Assembly (NCBI GenBank): GCA_963705375.1
Contig: OY970071.1
Location: 480,001 to 512,000 of the forward strand
Direction of reading: 5' to 3'
Length of the DNA stretch: 32,000 nucleotides
Source: Candidatus Saccharimonadota bacterium
GTDB taxonomy: Archaea; Micrarchaeota; Micrarchaeia; Micrarchaeales; Micrarchaeaceae
The notes beneath the pieces were generated by a model, which saw only the letters and a list, made by a program, of their open reading frames with translations, was not told where the DNA came from and searched no databases. A program made the translations under genes and the position numbers. This document shows, in pieces, positions 2,942 through 32,000 of this stretch; position 1 is the first letter of the stretch; every line of letters starts with the position of its first letter.

Positions 2942-3889
2942 ATGGTAGAATTGATCAATATGAAGAGAGTCGTAATAATAATTCTGAATTATAACGGACT
3001 AGCTATAAAGTTCAAAGGGAGAGGCATTATACAACTGTGCTTGGAGCACCTGATGCGCACTAATTACGATAATTATAGGATAGTTGTCGAAGACGACCAT
3101 TCAACAGACAGATCTATCGAATATTTAAGGTCCAAGAATGTCGATCTGATAGCGCTGAAAAAGAATCTCTACCACATTTCAAGAGAGTGCAACATAGGCA
3201 TTATGCATTCGCTTAGAAAATATCATCCGGATTATATTGTTCTATTGAACGACGACATTATAATAAAAGATAGGAATTGGCTCACTAAACTGGTTAATGC
3301 TGCTGAAACGACTGGTGCAGGAGTTGTTGGTTGCAATCTTGTAGAGCCGACGAATGCAGAAGAACACGAACAACAGAACAGACCATACGATCACAGAACA
3401 GATGAAGTGGAGAGTGTGATCGGGGCGTGCATGCTGATCAGCAAAGAAGCGTTAAAAACAGTCGGAATGTTCGATGAAGAGTTTCTCTCTGGCGAAGAGG
3501 ATTTGGATTACTGTTTAAGGGTCAAGGCAGCAGGACTCAAGGTTATACGAAACAATCAAGTAAACCTGATACATCTGGAAGGCATATCGACTATAAAGCA
3601 AAAAGGCACACGGGTGGTGGAATGGCGGTTCTATGGTGACTCGATAAGTAAAATTCATTTTATTAAAAAGCATTATCAGACACCCGTACTCCGAAAGAAG
3701 ATTTCAACAATCCTAGACTATTTCGGTTCGTGCATAATACAGAGGTATGCGTTGGATAAGAAAAGAGGCCAGTTCGGGTTTGCATTAAAGAATCGGAAAC
3801 TCTGGAGATTGAAAGAGGCAACTCGCGTTTTACTGTACACACTTACGCACGAATCCATGCCAACTCAGAGAACCTTCATGAAGGCATAG
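2942..3889 (+). CDS. Glycosyltransferase family 2
   Basis: VVIIILNYNG start, EDDHSTD, LLNDDIII (DxD region) and GACMLISKEAL..GMFDEEF typical of GT2. An alternative ATG lies at 2960. Confidence 0.7.
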   Translation: MVELINMKRVVIIILNYNGLAIKFKGRGIIQLCLEHLMRTNYDNYRIVVEDDHSTDRSIEYLRSKNVDLIALKKNLYHISRECNIGIMHSLRKYHPDYIVLLNDDIIIKDRNWLTKLVNAAETTGAGVVGCNLVEPTNAEEHEQQNRPYDHRTDEVESVIGACMLISKEALKTVGMFDEEFLSGEEDLDYCLRVKAAGLKVIRNNQVNLIHLEGISTIKQKGTRVVEWRFYGDSISKIHFIKKHYQTPVLRKKISTILDYFGSCIIQRYALDKKRGQFGFALKNRKLWRLKEATRVLLYTLTHESMPTQRTFMKA

Positions 3890-4168
3890 AGGATAGATGA
3901 GAATACATGACGTTGCTTTTAGTAAAATCAAATAACCAGACTGCATCTGAGAAAAAAAGGATTTTCACGGGGGAGCCACGATGAAGGGCACGGCCACCAT
4001 AAAGCATACAGTTTTGATCATTGAGTGGAAATGCGGACTTTGGCCTCACTGCAGCATATATAAATAACAACGCTGGATATTTAATGTCGACCACAAGTAA
4101 GTTACGTGCTCAAGCAAAAAACATACGGAGTGGCTGCTTGTAAGATTGATGGACTCTGATAGAGGAGG

Positions 4169-5254
4169 ATGCGCTTGCAAAGATTATCCGTTCTGATATT
4201 CTCCAAAGATGATGTGGACAAGGCTACAGCCCTTATAAAAGACATATATTCGATCGCAGACCAGATTGTGGTGATAGATTCCAGCAGCAAGAGCAATCTC
4301 AAAAGGCTGGAAGCAATCAAAAAGAAGATGAGACTGAAGAAACTCGAGATATTTCACACAGTGGCACTGGGTTATGCGGATCCGCTCCGCATGTTTGGAT
4401 TGCATAAGTGCAGGTACGACTGGGTGCTCCACCTTGACACTGACGAGAGAGTGAACGAAGCGCTTAAGAATGATGTCAAAAGCGTGGTAGGCAGCACAGG
4501 GGCGCATGCATTCGCAATAAAACGGTATGAGGAAGCGCATCTGAACGGAGAGACGACCTCGTTCTTCACTTGGCAGATACGGCTCTACAACAGAAATTTC
4601 GTGAGATTCAAGGGCATAACCCATGAACAGCCGATCGTGGACGGCACAGTGGAGAGGCTAGATGATAAATACAAGATGCTGCACATCGCAGAGCTCCAGG
4701 GGAAGGCTTCGCACGAGTACACAAAGATGGAGATGTTCGAGCGCTTTTCATATGAGGCATTCAACGAAAGGATACTGGACTATGCTTTCAAGGCGATGAT
4801 GCCCGCCCAGAGGGACTTCAAAAAGACTGCTCTTGGAAAGGTAATATACGACGTGCTCCGCATTTATGAAGCACTGACGTTCAGGAAGGCAGATGAAGAG
4901 ATAAGCAACCTTGATTATTTTACATTGTATTCGTTGAGGGACTTGGCGTTCCAGATAAAGATGCGGCATTTTAAGGCGCACCAGATAGAAGAACGGCGTT
5001 GGGAAGGCATGGCCAGCATACTGCCGAACAGGATGACCTATATCAGTAGACTCAATAAATGGCGCAGCGCCAAGAACAGCAAGGCAATATTCGAGATTGC
5101 AAAGAACATAGAGAAAGATGGGATAATAAGATACCTGAGGCTTGATGATGACGATACAATCCGCGAGCTAAATGAAAAGTATGAAGGAAAGAAGCAGGGA
5201 GTCGACCTTTTGATCAAACTGCTAGAGGACAGATACTACGGCAGAGATTCGTAG
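4169..5254 (+). CDS. GT2-like glycosyltransferase with a helical C-terminal extension
   Basis: LSVLIFSKDD, VVIDSSS and HLDTDERV (DxD) in the first ~170 aa. GGAGG at 4164-4168 abuts the ATG at 4169, so the TTG at 4175 (6-nt spacer) is an alternative start. Confidence 0.55.
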   Translation: MRLQRLSVLIFSKDDVDKATALIKDIYSIADQIVVIDSSSKSNLKRLEAIKKKMRLKKLEIFHTVALGYADPLRMFGLHKCRYDWVLHLDTDERVNEALKNDVKSVVGSTGAHAFAIKRYEEAHLNGETTSFFTWQIRLYNRNFVRFKGITHEQPIVDGTVERLDDKYKMLHIAELQGKASHEYTKMEMFERFSYEAFNERILDYAFKAMMPAQRDFKKTALGKVIYDVLRIYEALTFRKADEEISNLDYFTLYSLRDLAFQIKMRHFKAHQIEERRWEGMASILPNRMTYISRLNKWRSAKNSKAIFEIAKNIEKDGIIRYLRLDDDDTIRELNEKYEGKKQGVDLLIKLLEDRYYGRDS

Positions 5255-7093: not shown

Positions 7094-7247
7094 GCCACTA
7101 GTTGATAAGGTTCCTCAGATATATATAACTAATCTTCAAGGCGTACAAATTAGATTTCGGATATTCACACGTTCTCGACCGACAAACTTTATATACTCGA
7201 ACGCATGATGCATAAAAATAATAATGGCTTTATCCTTATGTTAAAGC
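7094..7247. promoter_or_regulatory. Divergent promoter region between the small-ORF/radical-SAM unit and rfbH
   Basis: ATATATATAA at 7119-7128 serves the minus unit. CATAAAAATAATAA at 7211-7224 is about 27-30 nt upstream of the rfbH ATG at 7248. Confidence 0.45.
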
Positions 7248-26721: not shown

Positions 26722-28407
26722 CTATCGCGAATGTGGCTTTGGAAATAGAGAGTATATCGTGAAATTTGCTGCTGTAGAATCAAATGTATCGTTTGTACCT
26801 TTGTCTGTGACTATTGCTTTGTACGAGAAGACGTTGCCGGTTGTGGGCGAGCTTACTGCGAGATTTTTTGAGAGCAAGATTCCTGTTTGCTGGCTTATAA
26901 TGGTGTTGACTACCGAGCTGCTTCCGCCAGTAACGTTGATAAAGTTGATAGTGAACGGGCCTATGCCTCCGCTGAGCTGTATGTTGAGAGTTTGAGTCTG
27001 CCCCGATACGATTTCCGGATCGCTGACCGAAAGCGTTGCCGTCGGAACCGCCCTAGCAGTGTACGTTGTTGATGTAGATTTTGTTAAGAAATCAATTGGT
27101 GCGTAATAAACAGCCGTGTTGTTCGCTTTTGAATTAGTTCCCCCAACACAATAGATGTCGTTGGCTGCCTCGAAACAGCCGGCATAAGCTGTGCCGAATG
27201 GGAACGTAGTTGTCTGAGTCCAGGATGCAAGACCTTGTGGAGTCATTTGCGAGAACAAAACAATACCTAGAGGCACTCCTGCCGTGTTATAGTCACCTAT
27301 AGCGAAACCGTAATCGGCAGTGGAGTTTGAGACGCGACCTGTGTGAGAAGCTTTGACAGGATAACTAGTGGTCTGTGTCCACTTTCCGATTCCAGACGAA
27401 GAAATCGGAGCGTAGTAAGAAACCTGCTGTTCTCCTTTATTGTTGATTCCTGTGGTGCAATATATGTTGTTATCGAACAGAAAACAATCAAAGCTTCTTA
27501 TCGGGAGAGGGTAGCTTGAGGTCTGTGTCCACTTTCCGATTCCAGACGAAGAAATCGGAGCGTAGTATGCTTTGTTTGTGGTGTTGTCGCCAGTGGTTAA
27601 TTTTCCACCCACACAGTAAATGTAGGTGCCGTTGACTATGCATTGCTGTTTGTAAATATTTATAGGGTATGCCGTCGTAGGCACCCACTTACCGATACCG
27701 TTAGCGGAAATGGGCGCATAGAATGCATCGGAAGTAACAAGGGTGTTTGCATGGTTTCCACCTATGCAAAAAATATATCCCGCATATATATTGCAGCTTG
27801 TACCTAAGGCATAAGCCTTGTATGTGTGCTTTGCGCTGACCGGATAGCTGGTGGCGTTTATCCAGTTTCCAACAATTCCAGAAGAAGAGAAACGTGCATA
27901 AAAGGTATTGTTTATAGTGTTTGCCGATTCTCCTACACAGTATACGTAACTGTTGTTCGGGGCACAACTGAGTGCACCTTGTCCGAACACGCCGTGACCT
28001 GGGGCATTTTCTGTCGCAACCCAATCACCTATGCCTAGCAGCTTGATTACCGTCACATTAACGGCAAATGTCCCTGTGCCCCATGAATGGCGCTGGTTGA
28101 ATGAAAATGTGTCGGACATTGAATTTACTGCCATGAGTGTGTTATTACTGACAATTCCAAGAGTATTTGATATTGAAAAGCGGTAAGAGAGTGGCGGCTT
28201 TCCTCCAAGCGCGTTTGCGGTCAGGACTTGAATTTGATCGTTGTCTATGATCACGCTATTGCTGACAGCGACATTAACAGATTGCAATTTGTTACATTGT
28301 GCAGTGCGCGTATCGGTCATTGAAGCATTGGCACCTACCGGTGCAGCCGCAAAGGCGGTTATTGATAGAAGTAGCAGTAGAAATGGCAGTAATGTGAGCC
28401 TAACCAT
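26722..28407 (-). CDS. Secreted surface protein with a signal peptide, an N-terminal PKD/Ig-like domain, a Kelch-like beta-propeller and a C-terminal PKD/Ig-like domain
   Basis: MVRLTLLPFLLLLLSITAFAAAPVGANA is a signal peptide. About six repeats of (F/Y)YAPIS..GIGKW..T..YP....C.....IYC.GG form the propeller. GGKPPLSY and GGIGPFTI are PKD-like motifs. I count 13 N-x-S/T sequons. Confidence 0.65.
   Translation of the reverse strand: MVRLTLLPFLLLLLSITAFAAAPVGANASMTDTRTAQCNKLQSVNVAVSNSVIIDNDQIQVLTANALGGKPPLSYRFSISNTLGIVSNNTLMAVNSMSDTFSFNQRHSWGTGTFAVNVTVIKLLGIGDWVATENAPGHGVFGQGALSCAPNNSYVYCVGESANTINNTFYARFSSSGIVGNWINATSYPVSAKHTYKAYALGTSCNIYAGYIFCIGGNHANTLVTSDAFYAPISANGIGKWVPTTAYPINIYKQQCIVNGTYIYCVGGKLTTGDNTTNKAYYAPISSSGIGKWTQTSSYPLPIRSFDCFLFDNNIYCTTGINNKGEQQVSYYAPISSSGIGKWTQTTSYPVKASHTGRVSNSTADYGFAIGDYNTAGVPLGIVLFSQMTPQGLASWTQTTTFPFGTAYAGCFEAANDIYCVGGTNSKANNTAVYYAPIDFLTKSTSTTYTARAVPTATLSVSDPEIVSGQTQTLNIQLSGGIGPFTINFINVTGGSSSVVNTIISQQTGILLSKNLAVSSPTTGNVFSYKAIVTDKGTNDTFDSTAANFTIYSLFPKPHSR
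27370..27567. repeat. Perfect 48-bp direct repeat, 150-bp period, inside the Kelch-repeat gene
   Basis: GGTCTGTGTCCACTTTCCGATTCCAGACGAAGAAATCGGAGCGTAGTA occurs at 27370-27417 and again at 27520-27567. It encodes YYAPISSSGIGKWTQT in two adjacent blades. Confidence 0.9.
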
Positions 28408-28413
28408 AGAGTA

Positions 28414-28779
28414 TCACAGCAGCTTGAGCGTCGAAGTGAACTGGTCTATTTCTGCGCTAGTCCACGGACCTACACCAAGCGCGGTGACGGTCCCGGGAGG
28501 AAGCGCGGTGAGACCCGCATCGGTCACAAGAGCGCATGGGACTTTCTTGTACTTGAACGCCTTGAACAGCTTCTCCAAATCGCTCAGATCGCGCACCTTC
28601 AGGACTATCTTCTTCTCGCCGGTGTCGAGCCATTGCTTTGCGATCGTTTTGTCTGCCTTCTCAGCCTCGAAGTAACTCATCAGGGAAGCATGAGCACCCT
28701 GGGCAACGGTCTTGCCAGTGCCCATGTCCAGATCGGCGCGGACTATAATCACTTGCTTTATCTCGTCCTTTGTCTGCAC
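28414..28779 (-). CDS. pth2: Peptidyl-tRNA hydrolase, archaeal Pth2 type
   Basis: KQVIIVRADLDMGTGKTVAQGAHAS and VTDAGLTALPPGTVTALGVGP. A GTG start at 28779 gives 121 aa and lies 27 nt downstream of a minus-strand TATAAAA (28803-28809). The track's TTG at 28869 would add 30 atypical residues. Confidence 0.75.
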   Translation of the reverse strand: MQTKDEIKQVIIVRADLDMGTGKTVAQGAHASLMSYFEAEKADKTIAKQWLDTGEKKIVLKVRDLSDLEKLFKAFKYKKVPCALVTDAGLTALPPGTVTALGVGPWTSAEIDQFTSTLKLL

Positions 28780-28916
28780 AATATAGGCATGGCAGTCTGT
28801 GTTTTTATAGAATGCGGTGATGATGGGCACGTTGATTTTCAACAGGCTTTTGCAGTATTCCCATAGCAAAAGGCTCTAATAATTCATATTCTATATTCAC
28901 GTGCAGAGGTGCTCGC

Positions 28917-30065
28917 TTGCTCGACAACAAATCCGCACTCTTCGTAAGCGGCCTGCTGAAGCAGTACTACGCGAGAGCGACAGGCATCGCTCCGAAGAAC
29001 ATAGCGAACAGGGAGTTTGGATTCGGCGATTTTGAGAAGAAGATAGCATTCAGGCATTATGCGTTTGGCAGTGAGAGCGATCTGAAGAGCTATCTGGTCA
29101 GGAACGCGCCACCCTATGTCTCTTATTCTGGCGCAGAATACCAGAAACCCGATGGCAGACCGATGGAGAGCAAGGGCCTGCTCGGCTCAGAGCTTGTATT
29201 CGACCTTGACTCCAGCGACATAAAGCTTGAGTGCAAGAAAGAGCACAACGATAATTGGATCTGCGAGAAGTGCCTTGAAGCGGTGAAAGGCCAGACCATC
29301 AAGCTCATAGAGGATTTCCTCGTACCCGATTTCGGATTCTCCGAGAAAGAGATGGAGATAAACTTCAGCGGGAACAGGGGCTACCACGTGCACATATCAA
29401 GCGACATGGTGTACGGTCTCGATTCTGATGAAAGGAAGGCGATAGCCAATTACATTGCAGGCAAAGGAATAGAGCTCAGCACATTCTTTCCGGCACTAGG
29501 CGTTCGCGGCGTGAGGCTTGACGGCCCGAAACCTACAGATGCCGGTTGGGGGGGCAAGCTGGCGAACGTGGTGATAGCCGCACTGAACAAAGGACCAGAT
29601 GCGCTGATCGGGTTAGGGATAGAAAAAAGATACGCTAACATGCTGTACAAGAACAGGGTCGAGGTCATACTCGGAATAACCACAGGCAACTGGGACAAGG
29701 TGCGCATACCTAACAAGGCGCAGTTCTGGAGCAACGTACTAGGAAGTATAGCCATAGCGCAGAGCAGTTCGATAGACAGGAACGTGACCAGCGACGTGCA
29801 CCATCTGATAAGGCTGCCCAGCACGATACACGGCGATACCGGACTTGTGGCAAAGAAGATAAGTTCGTTTAGCGCTCTTAACGGCTTTGACCCTATGAAA
29901 GAGGCAATAGTGTTCAGTGGCAGCACGGTAAGAGTTGCGACACAGAAAGTCCCAGCATTCTCAATGGGTGGAGCGCAGCTAGGGCCTTATGAAAATGAAA
30001 AACCAGAACTGCCGGCGTATGCCGCGGCGTACTTGATAATGAAGCGGCTTGCGACGCTGCTGTGA
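28917..30065 (+). CDS. priS: DNA primase small (catalytic) subunit PriS
   Basis: ELVFDLDSSD, FSGNRGYHVHI and LIRLPSTIHGDTG catalytic motifs. The TTG start is preceded by GAGGTG (28905-28910) with a 6-nt spacer. Confidence 0.8.
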   Translation: MLDNKSALFVSGLLKQYYARATGIAPKNIANREFGFGDFEKKIAFRHYAFGSESDLKSYLVRNAPPYVSYSGAEYQKPDGRPMESKGLLGSELVFDLDSSDIKLECKKEHNDNWICEKCLEAVKGQTIKLIEDFLVPDFGFSEKEMEINFSGNRGYHVHISSDMVYGLDSDERKAIANYIAGKGIELSTFFPALGVRGVRLDGPKPTDAGWGGKLANVVIAALNKGPDALIGLGIEKRYANMLYKNRVEVILGITTGNWDKVRIPNKAQFWSNVLGSIAIAQSSSIDRNVTSDVHHLIRLPSTIHGDTGLVAKKISSFSALNGFDPMKEAIVFSGSTVRVATQKVPAFSMGGAQLGPYENEKPELPAYAAAYLIMKRLATLL

Positions 30066-30072
30066 AAGGGAC
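30030..30072 (+). repeat. Copy A of the duplicated priS 3' terminus (the functional one)
   Basis: aag cgg ctt gcg acg ctg ctg tga (30042-30065) matches 30745-30768 at 22 of 24 nt. Confidence 0.85.
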
Positions 30073-30082
30073 ATACGACATT

Positions 30083-30115
30083 CCAGACAGCCAATCTGGT
30101 TTTCTTAGTTTTATT
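30083..30115. terminator. Hairpin plus T-rich tract between convergent priS and the 173-aa ORF
   Basis: CCAGA-cagccaa-TCTGG (30083-30099) followed by TTTTCTTAGTTTTATT. Confidence 0.4.
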
Positions 30116-30152
30116 ATGGAGTTCGTCCATTTTGGGGCGTTGTGGCACTATT

Positions 30153-30674
30153 CTACCCTCCCATAATATAGAATTCAGCCATACGAGCGCCAACTATCGT
30201 GAGCGTTGTCTCGGCAAACTCTTTGAACCGCCCATCCTTCTTGGCTTGCGTAATTTGTTCCTTAAACGCTTCATACCTTACTTTCACTGCATCTTCCACG
30301 TCTTTAGAAGTACCCAGACCTGCCCGAGTGGCAGCTTTGCACATATTATCGAGCGCCCTACCCATTTCCGCACGCATTTTGATATTCGGTGCATCAAGGA
30401 GCGTCAGCAGAATAGCTTCACCCCAATAATCATTTGCGACACCACGTAAAAGAATTTTTTTGGCGTCACCTTCAAATTTCGAACTAAGACCCATCATGTC
30501 GTCTGCAGCCGTCTTGAGCGCATCGGCAATGACATTGATGCGTTCTTCCAGCTTGAATGTTCCGAACGCAGCCACAGTAGCATCAGACATTGTGCTTGTG
30601 CTCTGTGCATTTCGGCCAGTGGAGGGATTCGTCTGACTCTCAGGCTCCGCAGCGACTGCAGATTTTGGATGCAT
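30153..30674 (-). CDS. Hypothetical protein, predicted all-helical with a low-complexity N-terminus; no family recognised
   Basis: Clean 173-codon ORF with an AT-rich putative promoter (AAGTAATAAAT, minus strand) about 30-40 nt upstream. An internal ATG (MSDATVAAF) is an alternative start. Confidence 0.4.
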   Translation of the reverse strand: MHPKSAVAAEPESQTNPSTGRNAQSTSTMSDATVAAFGTFKLEERINVIADALKTAADDMMGLSSKFEGDAKKILLRGVANDYWGEAILLTLLDAPNIKMRAEMGRALDNMCKAATRAGLGTSKDVEDAVKVRYEAFKEQITQAKKDGRFKEFAETTLTIVGARMAEFYIMGG

Positions 30675-30732
30675 ATGATCACATTAAGGTTTGTTGAGCA
30701 GAAGATTTATTACTTTCTAGCAGGAAAATATT

Positions 30733-30776
30733 TATCAGCTACTGAAGAGGCTTGCGACGCTGCTATGAAAAGAGAC
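30733..30776 (+). repeat. Copy B of the priS 3' terminus (untranslated relic), followed by a 12-bp palindrome
   Basis: tat cag cta ctg aag agg ctt gcg acg ctg cta tga reads YQLLKRLATLL-stop, against YLIMKRLATLL-stop at the real priS end. GTGAGGCCTCAC follows a few nt downstream. Confidence 0.8.
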
Positions 30777-30888
30777 GAGTGAGGCCTCACACATTTCAAA
30801 AGATTGCCGGCGAAACGCTCACTTTTCTGGGATCGACGTGCCAAAAGACAAGCTTTTTATTCTGCTGGTCTTCATACTATTGAGAATG

Positions 30889-32000
30889 CATGGGAGAAAG
30901 GATTCTTGTACTGGATGTCGATTCCGACAATGACCTCTATAAGAAGGCGAAAATAGCAGGCCCTGTGATCGGCAGAGGAGAGAACCTTAGGGCAGCTTCA
31001 AAGCTTGCGCTTGCTGACCCGCAAGACCCTGATGCTAACGCGATGTTCGAGGCCGTGCGCAAGTATGACGAGCTTAAGAAGAAAGGCTATTCTGTTTCAG
31101 TCGCAACAATAACCGGAGCAGAAAAGGAGGGCTATGTTGCGGACAGGGAGCTCTCAAGGCAGATAGATACGGTGATCGACAGGCTGAAGAGCGATGTCTG
31201 TGTGCTTGTGACGGACGGCACCAGCGACTCGAGAGTAGTGCCGCTGCTCAAGAACAGGATAAAGCTAAACAGCGTAGACCTGGTGCGCATGAAGCAGGCA
31301 GAGCAATTGGAGAACACATACTTCACCGTGCTTGAAAAACTCAAGGAGCCGCACTACGCGAGGATCGTGTTCGGCATACCTGCGATTCTCCTTTTGCTAT
31401 TCGCACTTAGCTATTACCTGAAACTAGGATGGGAGTTTCCAGTGGCGCTCATCGGCATATACTTGATATTCCAAGGCTTCGGCCTGATGGACGCGCTGTC
31501 TGAGTCGTTCAGAGGCCTCGGGTTCAGCGTGGAGAGGCTCAGCTTCGTGTTCTATGTCGGAGCGATGCTGTTCTTCGTTATCAGCCTTATTGTGGCTTAC
31601 GGGTCGTACGCCAATGCGGCAGCAACCACTACGAACGGGCTGGTCACCGGCGCAAGCTTTGTGGAAGGATTCCTGATACTGTTCCCTGTGAGCCTTGTGC
31701 TCTACCTTGTCGGCAGGGTCATAGACCTGCGCAACAAACGCATGCGATACAGAGCCATAACACAAGGAGCCTACATAGGCTACACGATAGTCGCTGTTGC
31801 GCTCATGGGCCTGGCATCAGCATGGATAGTCGGCCAGTTGTACTTCTGGGAATTCCTGCTCTTCGGAGCGGCAGGAATAGCGGCAGGCTACGGCGTCTCT
31901 GCTTTCAGCACGTTCCTGCGCGTGAGCGCACTGAGGAAAGCGAAGATGAAGGACAAAGCAGTCATCAACGAGATAGGCGCGCGCATAGGCAAGATAACGA
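30889..32000 (+). CDS. DUF373-family archaeal membrane protein, 3' end outside the window
   Basis: Hand translation from the ATG at 30889 gives MGERILVLDVDSDNDLYKKAKIAGPVIGRGENLRAASKLALADPQDPDANAMFEAV..., followed by several transmembrane segments. The frame stays open to the window end and the ORF is not in the track. Confidence 0.6.

Follow-up and report, generated by a model that had tools for sequence, protein, structure and literature searches.

Micrarchaeota are uncultivated archaea with genomes of ~1 Mb, and next to nothing is known about how they acquire genes. We analyzed a stretch of 32,000 nucleotides from a Micrarchaeota archaeon (GenBank assembly GCA_963705375.1, contig OY970071.1, positions 480,001 to 512,000; referred to as the window), in which the 3' end of priS, the gene of the DNA primase small subunit, is found twice. 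The upstream neighbor of priS is the gene of the peptidyl-tRNA hydrolase PTH2, and a DUF373 membrane-protein gene follows downstream. Both copies of the priS end point in the direction of priS and bracket a segment of ~0.7 kb with one gene, a 173-codon open reading frame (ORF) on the opposite strand which we call ORF173 (Table 1). The flanks of this segment are conserved. The priS ORF is full length and its product aligns end to end with those of relatives (348 homologues at E<=1e-100, mainly from Micrarchaeota), and the DUF373 protein on the right-hand side is 62-88% identical to its counterparts in relatives.

Table 1. Features of the priS-DUF373 locus (window coordinates; TATA, TATA box; BRE, transcription factor B recognition element)
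Feature	Position	Strand	Remarks
priS, DNA primase small (catalytic) subunit, 382 aa, intact	28917-30065	+	Pfam PF01896 E=2e-19; NCBIfam PriS models
Repeat copy 1 (c1, attL-like)	30037-30067	+	Last nine codons and stop of priS; weaker similarity 30029-30075
Hairpin CCAGA-N7-TCTGG followed by T-rich run, 5-bp stem	30083-30109	+	Three terminator-like sites in the region versus 0.8 expected
ORF173, sole gene between the repeats	30153-30674	-	173-codon ORF
AT-rich region upstream of ORF173	30675-30739	-	GC 0.42-0.46; TATA-like boxes 30704-30713 and 30725-30735
Repeat copy 2 (c2, attR-like)	30740-30770	+	Non-coding copy of the priS end; weaker similarity 30732-30779
Original priS-DUF373 spacer	30771-30889	+	Holds archaeal BRE/TATA AAAGACAAGCTTTTTATTCT at 30844-30863
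DUF373 membrane-protein gene	30890-32000	+	Pfam PF04123 E=9e-79; continues past the window end

The last seven codons and the stop of priS (AAGCGGCTTGCGACGCTGCTGTGA, 30042-30065) have their downstream counterpart in AAGAGGCTTGCGACGCTGCTATGA at 30745-30768. Without gaps the similarity covers 31 nt (28/31 identical, spacing 703 nt), and when a single 1-nt indel is allowed it reaches from a Tyr codon to ~10 nt beyond the stop, with 35/44 identical columns. Copy 2 reads KRLATLL-stop and both differences within the 24-mer are synonymous, while the third difference in the 31-mer (A/C at 30039/30742) changes Met to Leu. The longest exact run shared by the two copies is 17 nt. We found the repeat pattern (<=3 mismatches) at just these two positions of the window and in none of 100 dinucleotide shuffles of it; the chance expectation is none. 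No other gene-end repeat of comparable kind was present in the 32 kb. Over window positions 28544-32000, both copies included, the sequence is reproduced with 100% identity by a Logan assembly made independently (L047, run ERR11594402), which excludes an artefact of a single assembly. An initial annotation, made from the letters of this DNA, had reported the 24-mer, its 703-bp spacing, the reading KRLATLL-stop and the two synonymous differences, together with a hairpin, the opposite-strand ORF and an AT-rich stretch between the copies. All of these were located, and the repeat is the same in L047.

Copy 2 stands 121 nt ahead of the DUF373 ATG and reaches 42.7 bits with a matrix derived from six priS ends, a value equal to that of true priS ends. 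An Rfam search of positions 29800-31000 gave no match at E<=1 and placed copy 2 in no RNA family. Because of this result, and since the window contains no tRNA or tmRNA, an attachment (att) site of the tRNA type was rejected. The right edge of copy 2 is overlapped by a minus-strand hairpin (30772-30788) with a 5-bp stem, behind which TTTTCATAGC follows. This structure resembles a terminator and has no minus-strand gene upstream; it is probably due to chance. The plus-strand hairpin listed in Table 1 is probably the priS terminator.

ORF173 occupies 522 of the 664 nt between the repeats. A search of 5.8e9 clusters and a full phmmer search of 1.84e9 representatives each returned ORF173 only, in line with the orphan status proposed initially. 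Family searches (Pfam, PHROG, PADLOC, NCBIfam) gave no match, and the AlphaFold2 model, compared with PDB and BFVD by Foldseek, had no match below E=0.39. The model was computed from the single sequence and is of moderate quality (predicted local distance difference test 63.6, predicted template modelling score 0.55). It comprises seven helices and predicts an all-helical protein with ~28 disordered N-terminal residues. The codon score is +0.07 in frame, a level also seen in some genuine genes of this window, versus -0.24 and -0.60 out of frame, and an open frame of 173 codons has P ~2.5e-4 per frame start. Open-frame length, in-frame codon score and predicted fold suggest that ORF173 is probably a real gene. 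It would be expressed from the AT-rich region between its start and copy 2, a putative promoter. The G+C content at third codon positions (GC3) is 0.45, versus 0.63 in priS and 0.66 in the DUF373 gene. This low value and the status as an orphan ORF (ORFan) appear consistent with a foreign origin.

We compared the spacer between priS and DUF373 across relatives, referred to by our own handles. The best PriS relatives were contigs of Micrarchaeota metagenome-assembled genomes (MAGs), with PriS identities to the window of 88.7% (L032), 83% (L018 and L033), 80% (L034) and 78% (L024, with L035-L037); other relatives reach 50-70%. Contigs that encode an archaeal PriS of 55-64% identity (L002, L025, L026 and those of the proteins P0114 and P0120) are labelled as bacterial MAGs (Acidiferrales, Saccharimonadales, Acidoferrum) and are probably mis-binned from Micrarchaeota. 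The relatives keep the order priS then DUF373, and the gap between the two genes varies from 99 to ~2050 nt. It is shortest in L008 (99 nt, no ORF), which represents an empty site, and is filled with unrelated DNA in eleven further lineages. Gaps of 405 nt (L015/L030) and 460 nt (L010) are followed by 650 nt in L032 with a gene for a 120-aa protein, 741 nt in L007 and 884 nt in L019 with other small families, ~824 nt in the window with ORF173, ~892 nt in L024 with a vapBC toxin-antitoxin pair, 1052 nt in L018 with genes for 156-aa and 68-aa proteins, 1906 nt in L022 with other small families and one transporter gene, and 2053 nt in L033 with three paralogues. In L034, a minus-strand gene for a secreted or membrane protein lies downstream of priS, and the contig stops before DUF373. 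The cargo families are mutually unrelated, ORF173 is unrelated to the relatives' cargo proteins in profile comparisons, and all cargo genes lie on the minus strand save the transporter gene of L022.

The right-hand border of the spacer is stable. The BRE/TATA motif of the DUF373 gene (AAAGACAAGCTTTTTAT) is kept in all loci that retain DUF373, and the distance to the DUF373 ATG is 121 nt from copy 2 in the window, 116 nt from the corresponding copy in L024 and 99 nt across the empty site of L008. By these comparisons, insertions have struck the priS-DUF373 spacer again and again within this clade of Micrarchaeota, which makes it a hotspot, and they support the view that positions 30076-30739 act as an insert at the priS terminus. 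The initial annotation had suggested an insertion at this place and had recommended a search for an empty site in related priS loci. This proposal is supported in outline by the empty site of L008, by the variable and unrelated fills and by a second scar in the L024 lineage described below; the arrangement of the window is not universal among relatives.

The spacer between PTH2 and priS is variable as well. It measures 47 nt in the window, carries an AbiEi/AbiEii toxin-antitoxin pair in L033 (2472-3929) and a nucleotidyltransferase gene in L035 (3248-3949), so that two variable spots flank priS. A third variable spot may lie 3' of DUF373. In the source genome (L047 178-1366) this region contains two paralogous ORFs of 169 and 171 aa on the opposite strand without Pfam match; in L035 and L036, DUF373 is directly followed by the genes of RNase P p29 and ribosomal proteins.

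A second case, independent of the first and with a different cargo, was found in L024, L035 and L036. Here, the priS end AAAAGGCTTGCAACGCTGCTCTGA recurs as AAGAGGCTTGCAATGCTGCTCTGG 776 nt downstream and ahead of DUF373, and the two copies bracket a minus-strand vapB-vapC pair (PF02697, PF01850). The arrangement was seen in four contigs from three samples of the Joint Genome Institute (JGI; 3300033402, 3300034091 and 3300033405). The L024 repeat is 24 nt long; its downstream copy has a missense change and has lost the stop, and is therefore non-coding. As the AT-rich region of ORF173 does in the window, the TATA box/operator of vapBC abuts copy 2. When scanned with the matrix of six priS ends, downstream copies appeared only in the window and in L024 (20.1 bits), and none was detected in L032, L033, L018 or the part of L034 covered by its contig. 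L018 has a weak look-alike of the priS end at the corresponding position, which falls below the matrix threshold and which we treat as unproven. The same applies to GGGCTTGCAATG (L024 1506-1517), ~33 nt after the priS stop, which has the T variant seen in the L024 copy 2; an earlier event may have left it as a third copy that has since decayed.

The vapBC unit of L024 has homologues of 68-76% identity in four other genomic contexts. At the DNA level the homology begins with the promoter/operator ATAAATATATATTGTCTATATATAGATA and ends with the vapC stop; beside these units lies no integrase. Small cassettes, by this evidence of alignment, evidently move in these genomes. One homologue, in L045, lies at an unrelated locus between 14-nt direct repeats (3222-3235 and 3928-3941) of the sequence TAGCCACCCCC[T/A]GC, 50 nt upstream of vapB and 22 nt downstream of vapC, and this repeat may be a target duplication from cassette insertion. 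A trace of vapC was also found at the priS-DUF373 site of L018, where a 78-nt vapC fragment (7150-7227; counterpart L024 1667-1744) is fused to the priS stop. Between L018 and L024 this fragment is identical at 9/11 four-fold sites, compared with 45% in the host gene (p=0.015). A microhomology, GCTGC-ATGA, marks the deletion joint, which coincides with a look-alike of the priS end inside vapC (GCTGCGATGA versus GCTGCTATGA). This suggests that the fragment may have been left by a microhomology-mediated deletion. The vapC relic indicates that cassette-sized DNA entered the site and was deleted from it more than once.

How old are the downstream copies? At four-fold degenerate sites of priS, the window is 36% identical to L024 and 44.5% identical to L032, and the spacers of these lineages do not align. 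The low four-fold identity implies that unconstrained DNA is saturated at these distances. Each downstream copy is nevertheless identical to its own priS end at 21-22 of 24 positions, and under neutrality the probability of at least 20/24 is 3e-6 to 1e-4. The downstream copies must therefore be much younger than the lineages. Separate recent events at one site, refreshment by gene conversion, or selection could account for such young copies. Selection on copy 2 appears unlikely because it is gone in L032 and L033, is mutated in L024 and has no Rfam match. The same three observations speak against membership of copy 2 in a conserved functional RNA, which the initial annotation had named as a competing possibility.

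The differences between the two copies also bear on the question of which one came in. At 30039/30742, 30045/30748 and 30063/30766, copy 1 has bases that are found in 0/5 relatives, and copy 2 has bases that occur in relatives; its closest match is the priS end of L033 with its 3' flank. Lineage-specific change across priS amounts to 7% per nt. As copy 1 differs at this gene-wide rate, it resembles a native gene end evolving normally. Had the duplication occurred in situ, no less change would be expected in the unconstrained copy, yet all three changes would have fallen in the constrained copy, for which P is ~0.014. From this polarity we favor the view that the incoming DNA brought copy 2 along as its own priS-like site. 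Import of the 3' part of priS itself was rejected as a sliding-window comparison revealed no excess of 3' divergence, with 4 lineage-unique sites in the last 36 nt versus 2.5 expected.

The initial annotation had read the synonymous-only divergence as a sign that both copies evolved as coding sequence. This argument does not hold. Two synonymous differences out of two have a chance P of ~0.10, the extended repeat holds the non-synonymous difference mentioned above, all three changes lie in the working copy 1 and were thus filtered by selection anyway, and the second copy of L024 carries a missense change and lost its stop. Of the proposed insertion footprint, the insert-like segment at a hotspot thus stands, and the argument from two coding copies falls.

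In the reading that we favor, and to which we give slightly better than even chances, the ~0.7-kb stretch between the repeats would be foreign DNA that recombined in at the priS end via a priS-like site. The incoming DNA, probably circular, would have carried a sequence similar to the priS end and most likely recombined with the chromosomal priS end in a Campbell-type reaction. The reaction could be owed to a site-specific recombinase that acts in trans from a gene elsewhere, or to homologous recombination of the host. Copy 1 would then still finish the primase gene and copy 2 would be stranded as a non-coding scar, beyond which the old 121-nt spacer and the DUF373 promoter would follow. The cargo would consist of one ORFan gene with its own promoter, pointing away from DUF373 and converging on priS.

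Several observations weigh against this reading. No integrase or transposase is encoded between the repeats or among 20 ORFs scanned with Pfam (window 8.6-28.4 kb), as the initial annotation had already noted for integrases. A degenerate repeat pattern gave five chance matches with unrelated flanks in the viral contigs of IMG/VR and revealed no attP or free element there; nor did these contigs contain relatives of the vapC protein or of the L033 cargo family. The argument from polarity depends on just three sites. The two copies within a genome are only 1-2 nt closer to each other than cross-genome pairs are, so that gene conversion of an older duplication could also explain their similarity. 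We regard this within-genome grouping as a real signal, and because of its small margin did not take it as the main argument or to prove that the duplications were independent. Cargo without a second copy is found in the closest relative, L032, and in L033, which indicates that insertions at this site do not always leave a scar or that the scar decays. The sole clean empty site is that of a distant relative (L008, ~57% identity). Finally, the 14-nt repeat of L045 fits a target duplication better than an element-borne site.

The locus might instead be what is left of a full-size, integrase-encoding provirus or plasmid which entered the priS 3' end by tyrosine recombination and then decayed to one gene and both att sites, the relic suggested in the initial annotation. 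We consider this unlikely. Two independent lineages would have had to shrink to ~0.7 kb and still retain two att copies and a working promoter-gene unit, no room is left for an integrase fragment beside ORF173, and the vapBC unit changes loci without an integrase nearby. For such a decay speaks that an addictive vapBC pair is the survivor to be expected in L024 and that Micrarchaeota genomes are streamlined, implying a deletion bias. The type of event is also documented in archaea, and a repeat of 31-44 nt is inside the range of 29-69 bp given for crenarchaeal att sites in PMC6563490.

In a further scenario, which we judge clearly improbable, both copies would stem from the chromosome: a staggered break at the priS end would have been filled after foreign DNA had joined, either by end-joining repair or with the help of a trans-acting enzyme akin to a transposase or casposase. 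The L045 homologue with its different, target-derived repeat is the best support for such an in-place duplication. It would also account for repeat lengths that differ between the cases (14, 24 and 31-44 nt), and the IMG/VR scan found no copy of the site on an element. However, a repeat of 31-44 nt far exceeds the duplications known from insertion sequences (IS) or casposons (~14-15 bp for the latter), an agent that hit one site in one register in both lineages would have to be site-specific, and the three changes would all have hit the constrained copy and none the neutral one. Terminal inverted repeats that pair the two junctions were found neither in the window nor in L024, and together with the length of the repeat this is evidence against transposition. 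A casposon, an IS element or a miniature inverted-repeat transposable element was rejected for the lack of a transposase and of another copy in the window, and since the repeat length is not fixed (31-44 nt here versus 24 nt in L024).

Equally improbable in our estimate is an ancient duplication of the priS end, older than the clade itself, whose copies were kept alike by gene conversion from copy 1 or by regulatory selection on copy 2 and whose cargo was swapped by other means. It would explain why copy 2 stands at a near-equal distance from DUF373 in two lineages (121 versus 116 nt) and why the TATA box of the cargo has copy 2 immediately upstream of it in each, and it could accommodate the weak look-alike at that position in L018. 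Yet copy 2 is missing from the sister lineage L032 and from L033, the L024 copy is not constrained as a unit given its lost stop and missense change, and Rfam gave no match. The promoters of ORF173 and vapBC are those of unrelated cargo and would not share an operator. Moreover, gene conversion would have to act on tracts of 24-31 nt, about the shortest that recombination can handle.

Chance similarity or an assembly chimera, for which nothing but the short repeat length speaks, is hardly credible in view of 0/100 shuffles, the identical second assembly, the analogous arrangement in four contigs of the L024 lineage from three samples, and a longest exact run of 17 nt, which is too short to mislead usual assembly k-mers.

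Returning to foreign DNA recombined in at the priS end, we also considered a broader version, a system of integrase-less cassettes mobilised in trans in Micrarchaeota. Units of ~0.7 kb with a promoter and a gene (ORFans, vapBC and others) would dock at the priS 3' end in fixed orientation by a short priS-like site and would be excised and re-inserted between lineages, as a functional analogue of integron cassettes. This wider proposal is doubtful and to be taken as speculation.

The 20 ORFs scanned between 8.6 and 28.4 kb of the window, among which Pfam detected no recombinase or transposase, are housekeeping genes for the most part; the exceptions are one Kelch-repeat protein and two small ORFs that had no match. 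The Kelch-like gene (26722-28407, minus strand) encodes a secreted protein of 561 aa with a weak PF24681 match and contains 150-nt tandem repeats (internal repeats 27355-27723). It separates PTH2 from a class IV aminotransferase gene, two genes that are adjacent in L033 and L035. As its GC3 of 0.46 is as low as that of ORF173, it looks like a further lineage-specific insertion. Two repeat pairs at 2034-2054/4047-4067 and 2148-2175/4165-4192, ~2015 nt apart, lie just upstream of or at the 5' ends of the ORFs 2183-2887 and 4169-5254, which suggests paralogous promoters or N-termini.

The locus represents a precisely bounded gene gain whose junction scar is still readable, at a site that was hit repeatedly in relatives. 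It indicates that very small units, such as one ORFan or one toxin-antitoxin pair, can be acquired without a resident integrase. The priS-DUF373 spacer is thus a place to seek strain-level presence or absence of cargo and excision products in metagenomic reads. A dedicated trans-acting mechanism, if true, would add a new way for cassettes to move in archaea; if there is none, the locus is a clean yet ordinary integration scar.

How does this locus compare with known systems? Archaeal integrated elements normally carry their own integrase and span kilobases. Krupovic et al. 2019 (PMC6563490) describe archaeal elements that integrate at the 3'-distal ends of protein-coding genes, a process that yields att repeats and reconstitutes the ORF. 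According to this survey, 14/68 thaumarchaeal elements sit at such ends, crenarchaeal att sites are 29-69 bp long, and the classes distinguished (proviruses, casposons, IS-like transposons, integrative-conjugative and cryptic integrated elements) are multi-gene mobile genetic elements. Like elements that target gene 3' ends, for example the thaumarchaeal cryptic integrated elements, the priS locus has a direct repeat over the end of a host gene whose ORF stays intact, empty sites in relatives, and unrelated occupants of the same gene elsewhere. In contrast to them, the bracketed DNA measures 0.66 kb with one ORFan and no recombinase and the host belongs to the DPANN archaea; priS is not among the targets listed in the excerpted text of PMC6563490. 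Casposons, which use the 3' end of aEF-2 or tRNA genes, share the site specificity for the 3' end of a conserved informational gene and the target-derived direct repeats, but they have terminal inverted repeats, a casposase, polB and duplications of ~14-15 bp, none of which is present at the priS locus.

Integron cassettes resemble the insert as single-gene units in fixed orientation at one docking site, moved by an enzyme that the cassette does not encode. The priS cassette differs in its own promoter and in lacking an attC-like imperfect palindrome or a nearby IntI/attI; moreover, the site of integron cassettes is cassette-borne, whereas the repeat here is a copy of the host gene end. Flexible islets are bacterial chromosomal hotspots between core genes which often hold toxin-antitoxin or defence genes. 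The conserved flanks and small lineage-specific genes of the priS region, including vapBC and the AbiE pair on the other side of priS in L033, are similar; flexible islets, however, usually arise by homologous recombination of the flanks and rarely involve a duplicated gene end, whereas two lineages here keep a junction scar. Homology-facilitated illegitimate recombination and Campbell-type single crossover are described in naturally transformable bacteria. They too need no element enzyme, use short homology to a host gene to anchor foreign DNA and may leave a duplicated segment; the homology at priS differs in being merely ~30-45 nt long, and to our knowledge such integration has never been demonstrated in Micrarchaeota. 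Against this background, the locus is a new example of a known event, an integration scar at the 3' end of a protein gene, made notable by its tiny size, by the missing integrase and by a priS-DUF373 spacer that has served repeatedly as insertion site in a DPANN clade.

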